Made by a program: the position numbers and the translations under genes. DNA of 56,201 bases, from positions 1-56,201 of the forward strand of contig CAYHQK010000001.1 of the NCBI GenBank assembly GCA_964358535.1, given 5' to 3'. The notes beneath the pieces are model-generated. The model had not been told where the DNA came from. It did not search any database and saw only the letters and a list, made by a program, of their open reading frames with translations. Shown here piece after piece: positions 7,487 through 45,807 of this stretch (within the stretch, counting starts at the first letter, position 1; each line of letters opens with the position of its first letter). The DNA comes from an uncultured Nitrospira sp. (GTDB lineage Bacteria; Nitrospirota; Nitrospiria; Nitrospirales; Nitrospiraceae).

Positions 7487-8678
7487 AGATTTTTTTCACC
7501 TCCTCCGCTTTCTTTTTCATCTGCTCTGCCGCCTTCTGCATCCAGTTGGTCAGCCCGTTCGCTGGCAGGGGACCCGACACGACCGGTGGAGGCGGAGGCG
7601 GCTCACGGGTAATCCGCTGCCACGTGTCCTTCACTTGTGTGGTCTTCTGGAGCGCGTGACCGAGAGTCTTCGCCGTCTCCACCGTCAGCGGCCGCTCCAT
7701 GTCCCGCATGAGGGTCCCGCGCTCTTCGGGCTTGGGCATGTAATGTTGCGCGATGTGGCTGACGTCGAGCGTGGCTCTGAGCCCGGTCGCTTCGGTTCGA
7801 CCATACAGATCACGCGTCTCGTTCACCGCAACGGCGACGGTCCCTTTTGCTTCCCGGTCAAACCCGAGCCCGGTGTCCGAGGCCGCGCCTTCGTACTTCT
7901 GATCCGCCAAACTCCCCAATTTAGCCCGGCCGCCTGCAGCTTGCGTGACGATCAGGTCGCGCAAGGCTTGGCTCTGCTCGATCGCGCTCCTGAGAGCGCC
8001 CTTCTGCTCCACACTGATCGAGAGGGCCCCCAGATAATCATTGGCGGCGCGCTGTTCCAACTGCTGCCGCTCCGTTGCCGGCAGAGGCATACCCAGCCGT
8101 GTGACCGCAAGATCGTACTCCTGCTGATGCATCCGGTTCTGCACCTGCAACAGCTGCTGAATACCGCGACGCGCCTCCGGATCCCCCTCAAGCCGGCGAT
8201 TAAGATCGCGGCTGAATCGCGGGTCCGCATTGAGTTTGGCGAGCAGCGCCTGCTGGTACTCGGCCTGTGCATTCTGATCGTTGCGACCGAGCCTGGCCGC
8301 CAGGGAGGGATTGTCGCGCAACACCGTCTCTCCCAACCGGCTCACGACATCCGGATGCGCCTGCGCAGCGGCTTCGAGGTGTTTGTTGTACACGCCGCGG
8401 TACGTGTTTTCGACCTGCTCCGCGCCCTGCCGCAATGTTTCGAAATTGCGCTGGAACTCCTGGATCGCGCCTTCGAACCGCGCGCGCTGCTCCGGTGGGA
8501 GTTCGCTCGCCACTCGGTCGAGACGGTTCTGCTGTTGCGTGATCTGCAGACCGTTGCAACTCGTATCCACCATGACCTGAGGGAACGCGCTCGTCAAGCC
8601 GGTGACACAACTCAGTCCCCACACCAGCGCCGCCGCTTGCCACATCATCGAAACCAGACCTCTCATTCCCGACACCAT
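7473..8678 (-). CDS. Secreted/lipoprotein-like helical Gln-rich protein of unknown function
   Basis: 401-aa ORF, signal-like N-terminus (AAALVWGLSC), long helical Q/R/E-rich region, PPPPPP tract near the C-terminus; overlaps neighbours on both sides (16 and 14 nt). Confidence 0.55.
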   Translation of the reverse strand: MVSGMRGLVSMMWQAAALVWGLSCVTGLTSAFPQVMVDTSCNGLQITQQQNRLDRVASELPPEQRARFEGAIQEFQRNFETLRQGAEQVENTYRGVYNKHLEAAAQAHPDVVSRLGETVLRDNPSLAARLGRNDQNAQAEYQQALLAKLNADPRFSRDLNRRLEGDPEARRGIQQLLQVQNRMHQQEYDLAVTRLGMPLPATERQQLEQRAANDYLGALSISVEQKGALRSAIEQSQALRDLIVTQAAGGRAKLGSLADQKYEGAASDTGLGFDREAKGTVAVAVNETRDLYGRTEATGLRATLDVSHIAQHYMPKPEERGTLMRDMERPLTVETAKTLGHALQKTTQVKDTWQRITREPPPPPPVVSGPLPANGLTNWMQKAAEQMKKKAEEVKKIYVLD

Positions 8679-10615
8679 GCGGCCCGTATGGGCCGCCCCT
8701 GCCGGCTACCAAACCCTTCCAGGTAACGCTCGCAATCACCGACTTGTCCGGCCCGCTTGTACAGGTCGGCAGCGACGAAATATGCCTCGATGTCAATGTT
8801 GTCAGGGTCCAGGCGGAGAGCCTCCTCGATGGCCTGAATGCCCTGAGGCACCTCCTCACGTTCGGCGTGGATGCGCGCCACGTAATAGAGGAGACCGGCC
8901 GACTCCACCCCGCGCTTCGTTAGCTGTCCCGCCTTCTCCAGTAGCTCGTCGTATCGTTTCTCGGCGAACAGCACACTCATCCACGCTGACAGAGCCCATG
9001 CACGCTCCGGATTCTCTTCGTAAGCGCTTCGGTACAGGCGGAGGACTTCGCTCTTGTCCTGCGGAGTATCTCGCTCGTACAACACCCCGCTCAACCGATT
9101 ATAGAAGAAGCTGTCATCAGGCTCCAGCCGAACAGCTTCCCGATAGTCCTGTTCGGCCGCACCCAGCTCTCCCAACATCCAGGCCAGGGTGCCTTTCGCG
9201 AAATACGCCGGCCCGTTCATCGGATCGAGTTCGATGGCCTGATCATAGTCTGCCCGCGCCGGGTCATAGTCCATTTGTGTGAGCCGGACATTGCCTCGAG
9301 CCAGATAATACAGAGCGGATTGCGGGTTCTGCTCAATGGCCTCTGAATAGGCGGCGATTGCAGCAACATAGTCCTCGTCGTGAAAGGCCCGGTTCCCTCT
9401 CGCGTAGGCGGCTTCCGCAGCCTCGGATGAGATCGTCGGTGATTCGGGTTCCTGACCGCTACTCGGAGCCGAGCCGGATTCGGTCGGTGGAAGCGGCGAC
9501 TCCCCCCAAGGAGCCAGATACAGCAGCACTCCGCCTAGCGCGGCAAGGACGATAACAGTAAGACTCGCGTGCAACAGCCACCGAGGCGCTGACGCGAGGC
9601 CTGTCCGAATAAGGCCATACACAAAGGCCAGGGCGAGAATCGCCAGAACAGCGAGGGAGCCGACGGCGGCCAGAAAAGACAGCCCGGTCAGCGGCCCGCC
9701 GGTGCTACTGCCCGAAAAGAGCCACAACCCCACCGCGCTCAGACCGAGCACGAGGAACAGCAGAGGGACTACAGTCTTCACGTCGGTGAGAATGGACGGC
9801 CATCCGGCGGCGCGCATGCGCAATTGCCACCGCTCGAGCGCATCCGCCTGACGATACCGGAGATCGGCCAGGCGCTCTTTGGCCTTGGCCTCTCCTGCCA
9901 CATCGGCCAGCACATAGTAGGCCTTGGCCTTTTCGAGCGAGTCGAGAGCCGGTCCCGCTGCAGCCAGGTCGCCCAGCCTCAAGTATGCCTGACCTTTGTC
10001 GTACTGATCGCCGACTTCGAGCGCCCGCTCATACCACCGCGCGGCTTTCGTCCGATCGGCATGAACAGGCCGGCCGATGTGATAGGCTTCCGCAACAGAC
10101 AGGACGGCGTAGGGACGCGACAGGAGGGCGGGCCGATACGCCTCCCAGGCGCCGGCCTCAATCCATTCGGCGGCGTCCTGCCACTGCGCGGTCTCAGCGG
10201 CGTAAGCGACAGGCACATGCCCCTCTTTCGCCAGTTGTGCCGTGCGGAGGGGAGCTTGGGGATGTCCATGGAGCGCGGCGAATCGAAACAGGGTGAACAC
10301 ATCGCCGGCCTGCTCGGGCGCCAGACCTGTTTCGATCAGACAAGCCAGCCGGTAGGCAGCGCCGGGATGAGACCCTCGCACGGCCCGCTCATAACAGGCC
10401 GCCGCCGCCGCGATGTCTTGGGGGACCCCACGTCCCTCCTCATACAAGCGGCCGAGCAGATACTCCCCCCGCTGGTCACCAAGATCCGCCGCCTTGCGAT
10501 ACAGCTCAGCAGCCTTGGCGTAATTCTTTAGAGCCCCATGGCCAGTGTCGAATTTGCGCCCCAGCCGGACGAGCTCGTCTGCATCAACCGATGACTGTTT
10601 CCCTGCGTCATCCAT
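8663..10615 (-). CDS. Sel1-repeat / TPR-repeat membrane protein
   Basis: N-terminal Sel1-like repeats (YAKAAELYRKAADLGDQRGEYLLGRLYEEGRGVPQD), three to four central TM helices, C-terminal TPR repeats (AAYARGNRAFHDEDYVAAIAAYSEAIEQNPQSALYY...). Confidence 0.75.
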   Translation of the reverse strand: MDDAGKQSSVDADELVRLGRKFDTGHGALKNYAKAAELYRKAADLGDQRGEYLLGRLYEEGRGVPQDIAAAAACYERAVRGSHPGAAYRLACLIETGLAPEQAGDVFTLFRFAALHGHPQAPLRTAQLAKEGHVPVAYAAETAQWQDAAEWIEAGAWEAYRPALLSRPYAVLSVAEAYHIGRPVHADRTKAARWYERALEVGDQYDKGQAYLRLGDLAAAGPALDSLEKAKAYYVLADVAGEAKAKERLADLRYRQADALERWQLRMRAAGWPSILTDVKTVVPLLFLVLGLSAVGLWLFSGSSTGGPLTGLSFLAAVGSLAVLAILALAFVYGLIRTGLASAPRWLLHASLTVIVLAALGGVLLYLAPWGESPLPPTESGSAPSSGQEPESPTISSEAAEAAYARGNRAFHDEDYVAAIAAYSEAIEQNPQSALYYLARGNVRLTQMDYDPARADYDQAIELDPMNGPAYFAKGTLAWMLGELGAAEQDYREAVRLEPDDSFFYNRLSGVLYERDTPQDKSEVLRLYRSAYEENPERAWALSAWMSVLFAEKRYDELLEKAGQLTKRGVESAGLLYYVARIHAEREEVPQGIQAIEEALRLDPDNIDIEAYFVAADLYKRAGQVGDCERYLEGFGSRQGRPIRAAWCRE

Positions 10616-12604: not shown

Positions 12605-12815
12605 CAGGATGCTGAAAAAGCCCGCCAGCAGGGGGTGGGATGGCCCGGTGAGTCCCCTGTGCTCGCGCAACGCGCGGTCTCAGAAGACCCTCGTTGGACG
12701 CGCGCAGTGGGGGATTCATCCGGGCCATCCCAGAATAACGTATACGAGCACGCTTGGAAGGACCATCTTTGGTCGCTCGCTGCGGCCTTGCTGGACGGTC
12801 TTTTTGAACATCCTG
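12605..12815 (+). repeat. Composite repeat: type-A TIRs enclosing a type-B extended hairpin (12637..12731)
   Basis: Ends CAGGATGCTGAAAAAGCCCGCCAGC / GCTGGACGGTCTTTTTGAACATCCTG; inner arms GGGATGGCCCGG (12637..12648) / CCGGGCCATCCC (12720..12731) are perfect complements; same architecture at 16976..17166. Confidence 0.85.
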
Positions 12816-23305: not shown

Positions 23306-25033
23306 ATGTACCGTCGTGTCATGGCTTTCGACTTCGATGGGACGCTCGCCGTCAACGGAAAGGTGCCTGCCGAGGTCGAAACCGCGCTAAAACAATGTCG
23401 CGACAGCGGCCATGTATTGTTCCTGGTCACGGGACGTCGCTACGAGACCGTAACCCTAGGCAGCCTCGGAGAACTCTTCTCCGGCATCGTCTGGGAAAAC
23501 GGCGCAGTCCTGACCCATACGGCGAGTGGCGAAACCTATCTCCCGTTCGGCCAACTGGATGTGCGATTGCTCAAGGCCATCGAAGAGGCGGGCATTCCAT
23601 TCGAGCGGGGGCTCGCCATCGCCGCCACCTGGACGCCCCATGATCAGGCCCTCTGGCACATCCTCAGCTCCCACGGCGGCAGTACCTCGATCGAGTACAA
23701 CAAAAGCGCGGTCATGGTGCTGCCGCCGGGCGCGACGAAAGGAACCGGCCTGGAACGGCTTCTGGCCCTGTGCGGCCTCTCGCCCAGAAACCTCGCGGCG
23801 TTCGGCGATGCCGAAAACGATCTCTCGATGCTGACCCTGGCCGAGGTCTCGGTCGCGGTGGCTGACGCGGTCCCGTCCGTCATCGAAACATCCGATGTCC
23901 TCGCCACAGCCCCCGGCCCTCAAGGGGTTCTGGAAATTCTCAAACAGTATCCGCTCGGCGGAAAATTCCTCGATATCCCACTCAAGCGCGAGCGACCGAT
24001 CCTGCTTGGGCAGACTGAATCAGGCGCAACCATCAACATCCCCGCTGCACAGCTAGCCGGACGCAACCTGGGAGTCTTCGGCAACTCCGCCACCGGCAAG
24101 TCATGGATGGTCGGCCTGATCGCGGAAGGGCTCCATCACGAAGAGTATCAGGTCCTCCTCATCGATCCCGAGGGAGACTTCCGCGGGCTGCGCGTCTTGC
24201 CGCGGTTCGTCTCAGTCAGCGGTGACAAGACCACCCTCCCTCCTCCGTCCGCCGTGGTCTCACTCCTCGAGGAGGGAGGCGTGTCGCTAGTCCTGGATCT
24301 GAGTCACTATCCCATCAGCTTGCGGAGCCACTATCTCGCCGAACTGATTCGTGCCTTACGGCCCGTGCGCGAACGCAAGTTCCGCCCCCATTGGATCGTG
24401 CTGGATGAAGCGCAGGAGTTCCTATTTGAGGGAAGCGAGGTCACAGCGCTGCTCCGCCCCATGTTGGAGACCGGCGGCTGGGCCTTCGTTTCCTATCGGC
24501 CGGATCGCCTCAGCGAGTCGGTGCTCACCTCACTCCACCACCTGCTCTTGACCAAAATCACGGACAGTCAGATCGGGGACTGTCTCAGGACCCACTGTGC
24601 CGTCTGCGGCATCCAGAATACGACCCTTGATCAAATCCCCATGGGGAGCGCCCTGCTCTGCAGCGGCGAAATCGTTCGCATGCGTCCGGCCATCAGGCGC
24701 GTGCCCCACGTCCGCCATCTCTATAAATATCTCGACGTGCCTCTCCCGCCGGGAAAACGGTTCTCCTTCCGAACCGAGAAGAGCCACCTGGGGATCGAAG
24801 CGGCCAGTTTGTACGAACTGTCCATCCTGATTCCAACGCTCCCGCTGGAGAGCCTCGAATACCACGATCGCCGGGAGGATTTTGTGAAATGGGCCGACTG
24901 GACGCTCGGTGATGGAGGGCTTGCCGTGCGCCTCAGAAAAGTGGCGAATCGCCACTACCAGGGAGAGGAACTCAGAGAAGTGCTCACTCAGGTTGTCTCA
25001 AACCACTATGAAGAACTCCGACAGTTAAAATAG
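23306..25033 (+). CDS. Fusion protein: HAD-IIB (Cof-type) phosphatase domain + HerA/DUF87-like P-loop ATPase domain + C-terminal unknown domain
   Basis: HAD motifs FDFDGTL (I), LVTGR (II), GDAENDLSM (IV); Walker A GNSATGKS, LLIDPEGDF, Walker B HWIVLDEAQEF. Confidence 0.7.
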   Translation: MYRRVMAFDFDGTLAVNGKVPAEVETALKQCRDSGHVLFLVTGRRYETVTLGSLGELFSGIVWENGAVLTHTASGETYLPFGQLDVRLLKAIEEAGIPFERGLAIAATWTPHDQALWHILSSHGGSTSIEYNKSAVMVLPPGATKGTGLERLLALCGLSPRNLAAFGDAENDLSMLTLAEVSVAVADAVPSVIETSDVLATAPGPQGVLEILKQYPLGGKFLDIPLKRERPILLGQTESGATINIPAAQLAGRNLGVFGNSATGKSWMVGLIAEGLHHEEYQVLLIDPEGDFRGLRVLPRFVSVSGDKTTLPPPSAVVSLLEEGGVSLVLDLSHYPISLRSHYLAELIRALRPVRERKFRPHWIVLDEAQEFLFEGSEVTALLRPMLETGGWAFVSYRPDRLSESVLTSLHHLLLTKITDSQIGDCLRTHCAVCGIQNTTLDQIPMGSALLCSGEIVRMRPAIRRVPHVRHLYKYLDVPLPPGKRFSFRTEKSHLGIEAASLYELSILIPTLPLESLEYHDRREDFVKWADWTLGDGGLAVRLRKVANRHYQGEELREVLTQVVSNHYEELRQLK

Positions 25034-41931: not shown

Positions 41932-41952
41932 CAGACCTCAGTTAATTCAGCC

Positions 41953-42762
41953 TTATTGGGCAATCTCGAGCAAATCAAAGAGCACTGTGTCCACATAGCG
42001 TTTTATCTTCTGCACTTCACCTTTGCTTTGGTGGATGTGCGTAGCAAGAGATGCTCGGTTATATACTGCTCGCATTACCTCACCAGAAAGTTCGTCGATC
42101 AGTTTCAGCATCTTCTCTGCGGAGTCCCTTTGAGTCTTGTTTCGTTCTCGGGACGTCAGGATGTATCGGGTCTTCTGTTTCATAGTGGGCTTATTCTGAC
42201 CGTCCTCAGGCTTGTACCACGCCTGGGCTTCCACATCCGCATCAGGCGCCAGTTGATCAAGCGTTTCTCTCAACGACTCTCGGAACTCCGCAGCGGTACC
42301 TCGATAGGACAGCCGCTCCGAGCCAGTTAAGTCTGACAACCCTTGTCGATAGGAGGCTGCTGCGCTCGGCACGAGAGACTCAAGTGTTTTGAGAATCAAG
42401 GTCTCCTCACGGGAAAGAGACATGCTCGTCCCCAGTTGTGTCGCCGGGACTACAGGCGTGGATAGAGCAGAGATATTGAATTCTGACAACTCCTTCCTGA
42501 GCGCACCAACAGTCTTTAGATAGGTTCGGCGAACATTGCTCCCATGAGCCAGGCGCACTAACTGTTGCCATAGGCCATCGTGACGTAGGAGAGAATCGGT
42601 CTCACCGACAGTGGTAACCAAATGTGGTCGTACATCGTTGAAATAACGCGTGGCGAGTCCGACAGCCCGATCTTTAGAACTTTGGTCGTTAACGTTGACC
42701 GCTTGCGTTCGGCGCAAGGATGCGCCGAACGCTTCAACGTCGGCAATGAGTTGGCCAATCAT
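41953..42762 (-). CDS. Helical protein with C-terminal Rx5H (HEPN-like) motif; unknown family
   Basis: 269-aa ORF; R236-ASLAT-H242 (nt 42037..42057, verified by hand translation) fits HEPN Rx4-6H; start overlaps the upstream stop (TAATG); lower GC than flanks. Confidence 0.6.
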   Translation of the reverse strand: MIGQLIADVEAFGASLRRTQAVNVNDQSSKDRAVGLATRYFNDVRPHLVTTVGETDSLLRHDGLWQQLVRLAHGSNVRRTYLKTVGALRKELSEFNISALSTPVVPATQLGTSMSLSREETLILKTLESLVPSAAASYRQGLSDLTGSERLSYRGTAAEFRESLRETLDQLAPDADVEAQAWYKPEDGQNKPTMKQKTRYILTSRERNKTQRDSAEKMLKLIDELSGEVMRAVYNRASLATHIHQSKGEVQKIKRYVDTVLFDLLEIAQ

Positions 42763-43340
42763 TACCGTTTCTTCGCGCGCCGCGCCTTCTTCGCCGGCTT
42801 TCTTCGTGAAGCTGTCTTGCCATCTTCGCCGCGTGGCATACTGTGAACCACTAGGTTGTGGCCAACCGCATTTAGCTTGTACTCACCGCTTCCAACCGCA
42901 TCTAGATACCCTGCGGCCTTAGCGTTTTGTAGGGTGAACTGAGTCTTCGTAAGTGGGAACTCAGCGATCTTGAAGTACGTTTCAATATCCTTGGCCGTAA
43001 TACGGTCTTTGCGGTCCGCCTTCGGTGCCGCATTCGCCAGGTAATACGCCACAAGCGTCGCCATCTCGTTCGCGGACCGTGGTTTCTTCTGCTCCTTGAG
43101 GGCTTTAATATGAACCAACGATGTTGGCTGCTCAACCCCTGCTTCGGCTGCGCCCCGCGTCGCATCCACTTTAGTAGTCGATACACCAGAGGTCGAAGTC
43201 TGTGTGGGGGGGATCAAGACGATCTGGAGACGATGCAGCACATACCCTAGAACGCTTGCGCGAACGTCGCCCGATAACGGCTCAAGGGCATGGAGGACAG
43301 CCTTAATAGCCTCGATCTCTTTATCAATCTGTTCTGCCAC
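42762..43340 (-). CDS. Winged-helix-like protein with Lys/Arg-rich C-terminal tail; unknown family
   Basis: 192-aa ORF; ...ITAKDIETYFKIAEFPLTKTQFTLQNAKAAGYLDAVGSGEYKLNAVGHNLV... then RRKPAKKARRAKKR; translationally coupled to 41953..42762. Confidence 0.6.
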   Translation of the reverse strand: MAEQIDKEIEAIKAVLHALEPLSGDVRASVLGYVLHRLQIVLIPPTQTSTSGVSTTKVDATRGAAEAGVEQPTSLVHIKALKEQKKPRSANEMATLVAYYLANAAPKADRKDRITAKDIETYFKIAEFPLTKTQFTLQNAKAAGYLDAVGSGEYKLNAVGHNLVVHSMPRGEDGKTASRRKPAKKARRAKKR

Positions 43341-43484
43341 GTGCTACCCTCCCTGAGATTAGAGCAATCGCCGCATAAGCCGTCTAGCCAGTAAGCCACT
43401 GCGCTAACATGGTTGTCTGAGCTATCGTATGGAGGGGAAGTCTACGCGGAATCCGACACTTGTTCAAATCCTCTATTTGAGGGT

Positions 43485-43568
43485 GGCCTGGAGAGTCCCC
43501 AACTGCGCGCGTCCAACGAGGGCCTTCTCAGGCCGCGCGTTGCGCGAGCACGGGGGACTCACCGGGCC
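43485..43568. repeat. Type-B extended-hairpin repeat, solo copy
   Basis: GGCCTGGAGAGTCCCC / GGGGGACTCACCGGGCC arms; core AACTGCGCGCGTCCAACGAGGGCCTTCTCAGGCCGCGCGTTGCGCGAGCAC; apical stem GGCCT-tctc-AGGCC. Confidence 0.8.
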
Positions 43569-43679
43569 AGCTCATCTCCGATGGCGAGGTTGATTGCTGC
43601 AGAATCTCGATGACTACGACTTCGTCGCATCCTGAAACATTGCGGCACCTTAGCGCCTTGTCTGTCAGAGCCTTGCGAA

Positions 43680-44108: not shown

Positions 44109-44575
44109 TTGCGTTTCGCCGGGCCTTCATTTCTGAGGAGAGCCAGATACGCCAAGGTGTCCGTGAGTTCCTGAGTCGTCATGGTGGTGTCAGGAAACAT
44201 GCCTGTGCCGGGATGGCCTTCGCGTATGGCGTTGAAGCGGGCTTTGTCGCTGGTCAATTGAAGGCTCTTGGGATTCCGCAAATCGGCAGGCTGCGGATTC
44301 AGTTGTGCAATGAGCGCAGCGGTGTCGGCAGCGAGTTGCGGTTGCCGATCTCGATACCCATCGATACCATGACAATAGCAGCAGACGCCCTTCCCGTTGA
44401 AGACCTCTCTGCCACGTCCGGCATCGCTTTGATCTGTCGCGCTCTTCTTCGACGACCGGGGACCGGCCCAGACAGGCATGTCGAATATCTCCGTGAACTG
44501 GATCGCCGACAATCCCACGAGGAGGAAGCAGACAAGAGAGAGCCCCCTGAGAATCTTGCTCGTCCGGTCAGTCAT
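44105..44575 (-). CDS. c-type cytochrome (monohaem)
   Basis: TM/signal anchor, CCYCHG motif, ...HPGTGMFP...; Met 44575 with SD AAGGA preferred to track start 44617. Confidence 0.75.
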   Translation of the reverse strand: MTDRTSKILRGLSLVCFLLVGLSAIQFTEIFDMPVWAGPRSSKKSATDQSDAGRGREVFNGKGVCCYCHGIDGYRDRQPQLAADTAALIAQLNPQPADLRNPKSLQLTSDKARFNAIREGHPGTGMFPDTTMTTQELTDTLAYLALLRNEGPAKRK

Positions 44576-44601
44576 CACATCATCCTTCCATTCAATTTTT
44601 A

Positions 44602-45081
44602 TCAGTGCTGTCCGCAACAGACCTTATAACGGTCCTCCGGAATGTTCTTCATATTCAGAAAAACTGTTTCGCGTTCTTCCGCACTGGTTACCTGATCGAT
44701 GGAGGGATAGAGCACCCGCTCTTCTTTCATGTTGTGAGAACCGAGCAGAGTCAACAGCGATTGCTCTTCTTGATCGCTGTCGGGGTTTTGCTCCGCGACC
44801 TTCTGGTAAATGACTTCGAGTTGTTCTCCGATCTGGCGATGTTCGTTTCGCATGACGAAAGTCGGTCCGCCTTCAGCCATGCCGGTTTTCTCTTCCCAGA
44901 GAGGAAACAACAGATCCTCTTCCCAGACGATATGACGCTGCAAGCCGACCTTGAAGTCTTCGAACGCGTCCTTGGCCTTGGCGAAATCGGACCGCTTCAT
45001 CTTCTGAAAGGTCTTGAACAACTCATCCAACCGGTCGTGATCCTCTTCAAAGAACGCGCTGATCGTCTTGCGCTCACTCAT
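44602..45081 (-). CDS. Hemerythrin (HHE cation-binding) domain protein
   Basis: ...FFEEDHDRLDELF..., ...LQRHIVWEEDLLFP..., ...NEHRQI..., ...HNMKEERVLYP... His/Glu ligand pattern of hemerythrin-like domains. Confidence 0.8.
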   Translation of the reverse strand: MSERKTISAFFEEDHDRLDELFKTFQKMKRSDFAKAKDAFEDFKVGLQRHIVWEEDLLFPLWEEKTGMAEGGPTFVMRNEHRQIGEQLEVIYQKVAEQNPDSDQEEQSLLTLLGSHNMKEERVLYPSIDQVTSAEERETVFLNMKNIPEDRYKVCCGQH

Positions 45082-45130
45082 AGGGTCCCTCCGTAGACAC
45101 TAGCTGCCAGGTGTTCAAACAGGCCGTCCT

Positions 45131-45240
45131 CTTCGTACGTCACTCGCAAATCGTAAACGAGACAGGCGCGACTCGCACAGATGAAACCTCCGACCCTTCT
45201 CGCTCTTCTCGCAAGACCCGCGAGATACGTTTCACGAACC
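45131..45240. repeat. Type-C palindromic element (degenerate copy)
   Basis: ...TCGTAAACGAGAC ... CGCGAGATACGTTTCACGAACC; shares GAGATACG(C/T)TTCACGA with 15466 and 48109. Confidence 0.5.
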
Positions 45241-45807
45241 GCTTTTGACTTTATACTCCAAATGACAGGCCACGCAGGCCTTCAATACGTTGTTGAATTG
45301 CGGCAGGATCAGTTTTAAATCTTTCGTAGGAATGATACGCGCCAATTCCTCCACCGCCGCTTGGTGCGCTTGAGCCAATTCAGCATAGTCAGGAGGACGC
45401 GGCCCCGGCTGCTGCGCCTCGGGGCGAGGCGCGTCTTGGCGCGCCAGGGATTGGGTTGGTGAGAGAAGATGCCGATGCAGGAAAAATCCGAGGTGCGACT
45501 CGGTCAGGCCTTTCGCCAACTCATAGTCCTCTTCGACCAGCGCGTTCACGATCACTTGAATCGTTTCCAGATGCTGCAACATGACCGCGCGATGCTCTTT
45601 TCCAGCCGATGGAGACAAGGGAATAGGCTGCCTGGTATCGGAGGTGAGATAGGGATTCGAGCGCGCTTCCTCCCGATAGGGCTCTCTCTCGACACAACCG
45701 GCTGATAACACAGCCAAAATGGCCACCAGCGCCACTTCCCAGAGAATGACCTGTGTCCCTCTATATAATGGTAGCGATAAAATCCGAGACATTTGCACAT
45801 CTCCCAA
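45232..45807 (-). CDS. Cytochrome c'-like (class II) haem protein, lipoprotein-type signal
   Basis: LSAGC lipobox, helical body, single CVACH motif 11 residues from the C-terminus as in class II cytochromes c. Confidence 0.55.
   Translation of the reverse strand: MGDVQMSRILSLPLYRGTQVILWEVALVAILAVLSAGCVEREPYREEARSNPYLTSDTRQPIPLSPSAGKEHRAVMLQHLETIQVIVNALVEEDYELAKGLTESHLGFFLHRHLLSPTQSLARQDAPRPEAQQPGPRPPDYAELAQAHQAAVEELARIIPTKDLKLILPQFNNVLKACVACHLEYKVKSGS

Follow-up and report, generated by a model that had tools for sequence, protein, structure and literature searches.

A horizontally mobile two-gene cassette of an uncultured Nitrospira, pairing a winged-helix protein with a predicted nuclease of the PF18165 family

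Gene pair and its insertion site

The 56,201-nucleotide stretch of an uncultured Nitrospira sp. analysed here (GenBank assembly GCA_964358535.1, contig CAYHQK010000001.1, positions 1 to 56,201; hereafter the window) contains a compact island of two minus-strand genes, designated A and B. Gene A (42762..43340, minus strand) begins with a GTG start codon and encodes a protein of 192 aa with an isoelectric point (pI) of 9.9; gene B (41953..42762, minus strand) begins with ATG and encodes a two-domain all-helical protein of 269 aa. The list of open reading frames (ORFs) and the sequence itself bear out the coupling described in an initial annotation of this DNA: the two genes meet at TAATG and share a single base. 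This junction, together with the adjacency of the two genes in all intact loci, gives the pair the organization of type II toxin-antitoxin (TA) modules, namely two adjacent, co-directional and coupled small genes forming one inherited unit.

The stop codon of B lies 21 nt from that of a plus-strand gene (acs) encoding an ADP-forming acyl-CoA synthetase with CoA_binding, Succ_CoA_lig and ATP-grasp_5 domains. The other flank is a minus-strand cytochrome c/hemerythrin operon (Cytochrom_C/CBB3 genes), so that the earlier placement of the pair between a synthetase and a cytochrome operon on opposite strands was correct, the synthetase now being assigned to the ADP-forming type. The lower GC content proposed earlier was reproduced by a windowed profile and by the GC content at third codon positions (GC3). 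Gene A has a GC of 0.547 and a GC3 of 0.591 (GC3 z = -2.3) and gene B a GC of 0.521 and a GC3 of 0.541 (z = -3.4), as compared with 0.596±0.029 and 0.702±0.048, respectively, for the 25 other genes of the window. A similarly low GC (about 0.52) is seen at 44400-45400, so that the island is not the only dip in the window. Searches of the island for Rfam families, tRNAs and sigma-70 consensus promoters were negative.

The history of the site was traced in 42 metagenomic loci, each encoding a synthetase closely related to the flanking one (59-86% identity). The gene order, comprising a membrane protein and the synthetase on one strand and the converging cytochrome c, cytochrome and hemerythrin genes on the other, is kept across these loci, and both A and B are absent from all 42. 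The gap between the synthetase and cytochrome c (cytc142) genes is only 46-76 bp in seven of them (L035, L038, L044, L045, L052, L066, and L070), versus 1748 bp in the window. Relative to such "empty" sites, the inserted segment spans 41932..43580, with its left edge no more than 21 nt from the acs stop and its right edge somewhere between about 43400 and 43610; the native 3' flank of cytc142 aligns again with locus L037 from about 43610.

Several of the relatives carry other small cassettes at the same site. BrnT (E = 2e-22) with BrnA is encoded in L041, HigB (1e-18) with HigA and an HNH-like ORF in L071, and a Gp49/RelE-like protein with an HI1420-type antidote (8.5e-30) in L073, L062, L039, L068, and L065, while L069 and L039 contain a Mrr-type restriction endonuclease (Mrr_cat). 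Three further cassettes at this position have no family assignment. The absence of the pair from the 42 relatives and the presence of other cassettes at the site reveal a presence/absence polymorphism at a hotspot that gathers TA and restriction-like cassettes, a possibility for which the initial annotation had proposed a synteny comparison between the synthetase and cytochrome genes. These observations support the view of the A-B pair as a laterally acquired, self-contained and translationally coupled two-gene island, and the acs/cytochrome c intergenic hotspot offers a natural "cassette trap" that can be mined for small conflict modules in this lineage.

The hotspot also holds a thioredoxin gene in L041 and L046, and ORFs of low GC content (0.46-0.52) encoding 304, 233, 163, and 166 aa in L051 (2561-3472), L058 (2422-3123) and L036 (6235-6726 and 6767-7267), respectively. 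A Pfam scan of the 304-, 233-, and 163-aa products gave no match. These low-GC ORFs may represent further uncharacterized conflict cassettes.

Pairing, distribution and boundaries of the cassette

More than 500 homologs of each protein are present in a 90%-clustered database (625 for A), and an exhaustive search with B yielded 661 clusters at 50% identity, nearly all of 260-280 aa and matched over the full length. An A homolog is located directly upstream of B in every fetched locus with an intact upstream region (about 30 loci, with B at 33-100% identity). The two genes overlap by 1-4 nt or are separated by no more than 16 nt in the gene-called loci, and by 46 nt in L076. In the most distant pair checked, with B at 33% identity, the neighboring protein is 43% identical to A (E = 7e-43). 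Both genes are under strong purifying selection: the ratio of nonsynonymous to synonymous substitution rates (dN/dS) ranges from 0.05 to 0.16 in A and from 0.04 to 0.07 in B, the more constrained of the two. Such values (0.04-0.16 overall), along with the more than 500 homologs of each, establish the genes as real beyond chance.

The cassette occurs in at least 8 phyla, in neighborhoods that are otherwise unrelated, and all named genomes that contain it are metagenome-assembled genomes (MAGs). B is 85-86% identical among a Dehalococcoidia (Chloroflexota) MAG, a Burkholderiales MAG and the present host. In 18 of 19 other loci the GC content of the cassette is below that of its flanks, as is the case here. 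Some copies reside in mobile or defense-related surroundings: an integrative and conjugative element with MmeI, GmrSD, TIR, ArdC, and relaxase genes; a region with Mrr, IS110, PemK, and DUF433/DUF5615; one with an integrase; and one with IS110/ParB_N. In an Alphaproteobacteria MAG the cassette has decayed (L026:7900-10500): B is split by an ORF for a 485-aa IS256-like transposase (8470-9927) and A is reduced to fragments. A 268-aa DUF5677 protein is encoded directly after the cassette in L082 (2332-3138), with a ParE/RelB pair 7 kb away, and in L002 and L003 the cassette is preceded by a conserved 185-aa ORF belonging to no family.

The cassette leader (43341..43400, minus strand) comprises a Shine-Dalgarno sequence, GGGAGGG (43347-43353), and the motif TAGACGGCT (43378-43386). 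In an upstream alignment of seven loci, DNA homology between the cassettes of different hosts stops about 55-60 nt 5' of the A start codon, at TAGACGGCT, a short motif common to the closer relatives. The leader is the only upstream DNA that the cassette has in common with those of other hosts. Neither terminal inverted or direct repeats nor an associated recombinase were seen at the cassette.

Farther upstream is an 84-nt hairpin (43485..43568; -65.8 kcal/mol, z = -5.4), a copy of a dispersed host repeat lying at the junction. The structure reported in the initial annotation is thus real; its description as solo does not stand, since copies of its core are also present at 460-485 and 12664-12689. 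This repeat is GC-rich and REP/MITE-like, and the hairpin is absent from the regions upstream of the cassette in other hosts. It is probably not part of the mobile cassette. Elsewhere in the window, the plus-strand region 23306-25033 encodes a 575-aa protein with an unusual mix of HAD-type hydrolase domains (Hydrolase_3/S6PP) and a HerA-like DUF87 segment.

Domain structure of the two proteins

Residues 138-260 of protein B match Pfam family PF18165 (pP_pnuc_1) with a score of 55.7 bits, well above the gathering threshold of 26.3 (E = 5e-15, model positions 13-129 of 133), and the same family is matched by 57 of 57 divergent relatives of B at 30-53% identity, from which the conservation counts given below were taken. 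B also matches the PADLOC profile Aga_Nuclease (PDLC02413) with E = 2e-11, over profile positions 30-143 of 267 only. Both matches fall among the pPIWI-associated nucleases, a candidate family that the initial annotation had listed for profile searches. PF18165 is defined as a "predicted pPIWI-associating nuclease," a name that rests on adjacency to prokaryotic PIWI/Argonaute genes. A literature search for PF18165, pP_pnuc_1 or "pPIWI-associating nuclease" found no experimental description, and the family is not described in the pPIWI-RE paper, the HEPN survey or the census of prokaryotic Argonautes (pAgos). The association to which the family owes its name is lacking at the A-B loci, as no Argonaute/PIWI gene occurs among the large ORFs of the window or the called genes of about 15 annotated A-B neighborhoods.

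The AlphaFold2 model of B has a mean predicted local distance difference test (pLDDT) score of 85 and comprises two helical domains joined by a disordered linker. The N-terminal domain (residues 1-101; 42460..42762, minus strand) consists of helices 2-18, 27-52, 56-73, and 78-101. It is family-specific, with Y40, F41, R45, D62, Q66, and Y81 conserved. The possibility that it is a diverged duplicate of the C-terminal domain, as in a tandem-HEPN arrangement, was rejected (hhalign probability 5%). The C-terminal domain (residues 118-264; 41971..42411, minus strand) is built of four long helices, 118-146, 154-171, 209-234, and 239-264, with an insert (172-208) between the second and third. Q140, D144, S152, G155, R161, A172, K197, and H242 are invariant in the 57 relatives, and R150, R154, E162, R165, E166, D174, P192, T193, R205, R231, and Y234 are kept in at least 95%; D169 and the segment P192-T-M-x-Q-K197 are also conserved.

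A candidate catalytic site is the motif R236-A-S-L-A-T-H242 (42037..42057, minus strand), which lies where the last two helices (209-234 and 239-264) meet. Residues 235-237 are modeled between them as a loop of low confidence, and H242 falls within the opening turn of helix 239-264. The model and the mapping of the motif agree with the earlier account of B as an all-helical protein with R236-x5-H242 at these positions. H242 is present in 57 of 57 relatives, R231 in 56, and R236 in 50, the remainder having L, Q, A, K, H, or S at this position.

Two kinds of deviating records were noted among B homologs. P0288 (464 aa) combines a PF18165 domain of the B type with some 300 unrelated N-terminal residues that have no Pfam match, and could represent either a recombinant architecture or a gene-call artifact. 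The Joint Genome Institute (JGI) records of P0041, P0054, and P0062 call these B homologs "DNA-binding XRE family transcriptional regulator," a label that is at odds with the PF18165 domain they contain and appears to be a misannotation.

Protein A, the upstream partner of B, belongs to no named family and has no match in Pfam, PADLOC, NCBIfam or PHROGs. Its N-terminal part (residues 2-38; 43227..43337, minus strand) is an acidic helical hairpin with a pI of 5.4, predicted by AlphaFold2 as helices 2-19 and 24-38 with a pLDDT of about 90. E8, A11, I12, R27, V30, Y33, and R37 are invariant in the hairpin, which may serve as a module for binding B or for dimerization. A linker predicted to be disordered (residues 45-73) leads to a winged-helix domain (residues 78-167; 42840..43109, minus strand), in which helices are followed by a beta-hairpin. 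Foldseek consistently related A to winged-helix DNA-binding domains, namely those of TubR, MCM8-WH, FOXN3, MarR, and AspA, with probabilities of 0.8-0.97 and E values of only 0.06-0.5, and a few members of the family show weak matches to Mrr_N or TilS. The C-terminal tail (residues 170-192; 42765..42833, minus strand) is disordered (pLDDT <50) and strongly basic, with a charge of about +10 and a pI of 12; its basic character is conserved and its sequence is variable. The predicted secondary structure and the Foldseek matches thus uphold the earlier proposal that A combines a winged helix with a basic tail.

Candidate function and relation to known systems

With moderate confidence, A and B may be interpreted as a compact, horizontally mobile TA or abortive-infection-type cassette of about 1.45 kb, consisting of the leader of about 60 nt followed by A and B. 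In such a module B would be the effector, acting through its predicted PF18165 nuclease domain, with the active site most likely around H242 together with R236/R231 and the R161-E162-R165-E166-D169 cluster on the neighboring helix. Translational coupling would hold the synthesis of A at a constant ratio to that of B, which A would restrain or direct, the acidic N-terminal hairpin being the likeliest B-binding element. The winged helix and basic tail of A could bind nucleic acid, either the leader of the cassette itself, for autoregulation, or that of an invader. If A were lost or diverted, B would cut nucleic acid, with arrest of the cell as the outcome; possible causes of diversion are proteolytic attack on the two disordered segments of A, a halt in host expression, and the titration of A by foreign nucleic acid. 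Many antitoxins have disordered segments. Because it has two of them, A is expected to be labile like antitoxins, and this feature, combined with the winged helix, resembles many antitoxins and appears to support the TA interpretation. The interpretation is further favored by the overlap and constant pairing of the two genes, the insertion at a site that holds TA cassettes in relatives, the low GC content of the cassette, the high identity of B across distant hosts, the mobile or defense islands around several copies, the PF18165 and Aga_Nuclease matches of B with its invariant H242 and conserved charged residues, and the tighter constraint on B than on A.

A number of observations weigh against this interpretation. 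By the standards of antitoxins, A is a large and strongly basic protein, and no conserved palindromic operator was found upstream of it in the leader alignment. Neither A nor B was seen mixed with other partners. B copies were not found on sequenced plasmids, in phages or in IMG/VR, which is unusual for TA modules; about half of the neighborhoods are plainly metabolic, and the mobile or defense-related link was judged without a background rate. PADLOC v2.0 contains no catalogued system matched by both proteins, A having no match and B matching only Aga_Nuclease, in part. The "nuclease" label of PF18165 is itself a prediction, and no significant match to a characterized toxin, antitoxin or nuclease fold was obtained in PDB sequence searches or with Foldseek against PDB and BFVD.

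The initial annotation regarded B as HEPN-like, and the pair would be a HEPN toxin-antitoxin module if B were a canonical RNase of this superfamily, a possibility that we consider somewhat doubtful. In the HEPN fold, four helices run up and down in a bundle, helix 2 carries a conserved acidic residue and is separated from helix 3 by an insert, and the Rx4-6H motif is located at the helix 3/4 junction, its arginine usually being followed by a polar residue (N/D/H) (PMC3710099). The four long helices of the C-terminal domain of B, as predicted, with an insert between the second and third, the conserved acidic E162 and E166 on the second helix and R236-x5-H242 at the junction of the last two are compatible with this scheme. 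A precedent is provided by Agap, whose gene adjoins that of the pAgo AmAgo; this small helical protein makes guide RNAs for an Argonaute and is a proven HEPN RNase (R262/H267) recognized only by structure prediction (PMC11162769); pAgo-linked helical "nucleases" can thus be cryptic HEPNs. Foldseek lists the HEPN toxin 8xdj_A for B with a target-normalized template modeling (TM) score of 0.51, but with E = 3.7, a probability of 0.41 and a root-mean-square deviation of 6.9 Å, below Csm2 and generic helical bundles, in a search run with the whole two-domain model, which lowers sensitivity. Other observations weigh against the HEPN assignment: no HEPN-clan Pfam match was obtained in the 57 relatives even at E<=1, B has no PDB sequence match, and R236 is replaced in 7 of 57 relatives, R231 being better conserved. 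Position 237 is occupied by A (22), G (17), S (16), or T (2) instead of the usual polar N/D/H, the helix-2 spacing is E-x2-R, versus Ex3[KR] in HEPN proteins, and the invariant residues are far more numerous than in typical HEPN families, including an acidic cluster that might instead bind a metal as part of a metal-dependent active site. Since neither the sequence nor the fold of B matches this superfamily significantly, its HEPN membership is unproven, though not refuted. A search of the 813 kb of fetched DNA for DUF86/HepT-type genes was negative.

Another explanation, which we consider rather unlikely, is a sensor-effector defense system in which A recognizes the nucleic acid of an invader and activates B, taking the place of Argonaute. 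PF18165 and Aga_Nuclease are both defined by association with pAgo, a nucleic-acid-guided sensor; no Ago is found near the A-B loci examined, and A is always there instead. The winged helix of A is highly conserved and does not co-vary with a local operator, no conserved operator having been found, and the re-pairing of effector domains with different sensors is documented in pAgo systems (PMC10620215). However, the architecture of B differs from the Aga_Nuclease profile, of which only positions 30-143 of 267 are covered, and the sequence data do not separate this model from the TA model. A related and similarly tentative proposal, to which we give only slightly more credence, is that the PF18165 domain acts as a modular effector which, having lost its link to Argonaute, has been joined anew to a nucleic-acid binder that needs no guide and is made of a winged helix and a basic tail. 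Less likely than any of the conflict readings, and in our view improbable, is a non-conflict role, with A as a DNA-binding regulator or a nucleoid-associated or segregation-type (TubR/AspA-like) protein and B as a helical adaptor, carried as accessory cargo. The top structural matches of A do include the centromere-binding TubR, AspA, and MukE, B has no significant similarity to a known enzyme fold, half of the neighborhoods consist of ordinary metabolic genes, and strong purifying selection with high conservation is atypical for fast-evolving toxins. On the other hand, the Foldseek matches of A are generic winged-helix ones with E values of 0.06 or worse, there is no partner NTPase and the genes are not on plasmids. 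Insertion into a TA hotspot, the defense-island contexts, the link of the B family to Argonaute defense loci, and an invariant histidine with a charged cluster typical of an active site also argue against such a role.

The domain of B has its own Pfam entry, and the two-gene TA-like layout is likewise of a familiar kind; the earlier description of the pair as undescribed applies only to the A-B pairing, which is uncatalogued. The novel aspects are that B is obligately paired with a winged-helix protein of no known class, that it is completely uncoupled from Argonaute, that the family is large and widespread, and that PADLOC v2.0 does not list it as a system. If the TA or abortive-infection interpretation is correct, the cassette represents an uncatalogued large TA/defense family of at least 8 phyla, so far known only from uncultured environmental bacteria; it would provide the first functional handle on PF18165, at present just a "predicted" Argonaute-associated nuclease, and would illustrate how one effector can be wired to two nucleic-acid-binding partners, Argonaute or a winged-helix protein. 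Should the re-coupling proposal hold, the A-B pairs of uncultured bacteria from soil and groundwater would constitute a large undescribed two-gene immune family (at least 661 clusters at 50% identity), and its study would also reveal the role of the Argonaute-associated "pP_pnuc_1" proteins. The cassette is a good, well-delimited candidate for experiment, one that rests on prediction.

Among known systems, the closest domain relationship is to the Argonaute-associated proteins. The C-terminal domain of B and all 57 relatives match the PF18165 model, and B matches Aga_Nuclease, but the partner in the A-B cassette is a winged-helix protein in place of Argonaute and B has its own N-terminal domain. 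B resembles Agap as described in being a helical protein of a pAgo-linked kind; unlike Agap, it has no Argonaute partner. With bAgaN of the long-B pAgo BPAN systems, a two-domain effector comprising a helical regulatory domain and a PD-(D/E)XK DNase (PMC10620215, PMC13535254), B shares the two-domain organization with a helical domain; it has no beta-containing nuclease domain. The possibility that B corresponds to the non-catalytic N-terminal "switch" domain of bAgaN was rejected, as EcbAgaN (sequence from the supplement of PMC10620215) matches DpnII-MboI and Aga_Helical-REase, not PF18165 or Aga_Nuclease.

The HEPN toxins of TA and abortive infection (Abi) systems (HepT/MntA, RnlA/RnlB, AbiD/F/V; PMC3710099) resemble the predicted B in their all-helical make-up, in the placing of the R-x5-H type of motif between the last two helices, in the insert that follows helix 2 and in the acidic residue within that helix, and resemble the cassette in the coupled two-gene layout and the mobile or defense-related context. 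They differ in that B lacks a significant match, R236 is not universal and the residue after it is not polar, and in that A is neither an MNT nucleotidyltransferase nor RnlB-like. Type II TA modules whose first gene encodes a DNA-binding antitoxin (HigBA, BrnTA, RelE/HI1420) differ from the cassette in other respects: neither A nor B belongs to a known TA family, both are two to three times larger, and the cassette was not found on plasmids. They share with A-B the organization as two small overlapping genes, the form of mobile low-GC cassettes, and the very same acs/cytochrome c insertion site.

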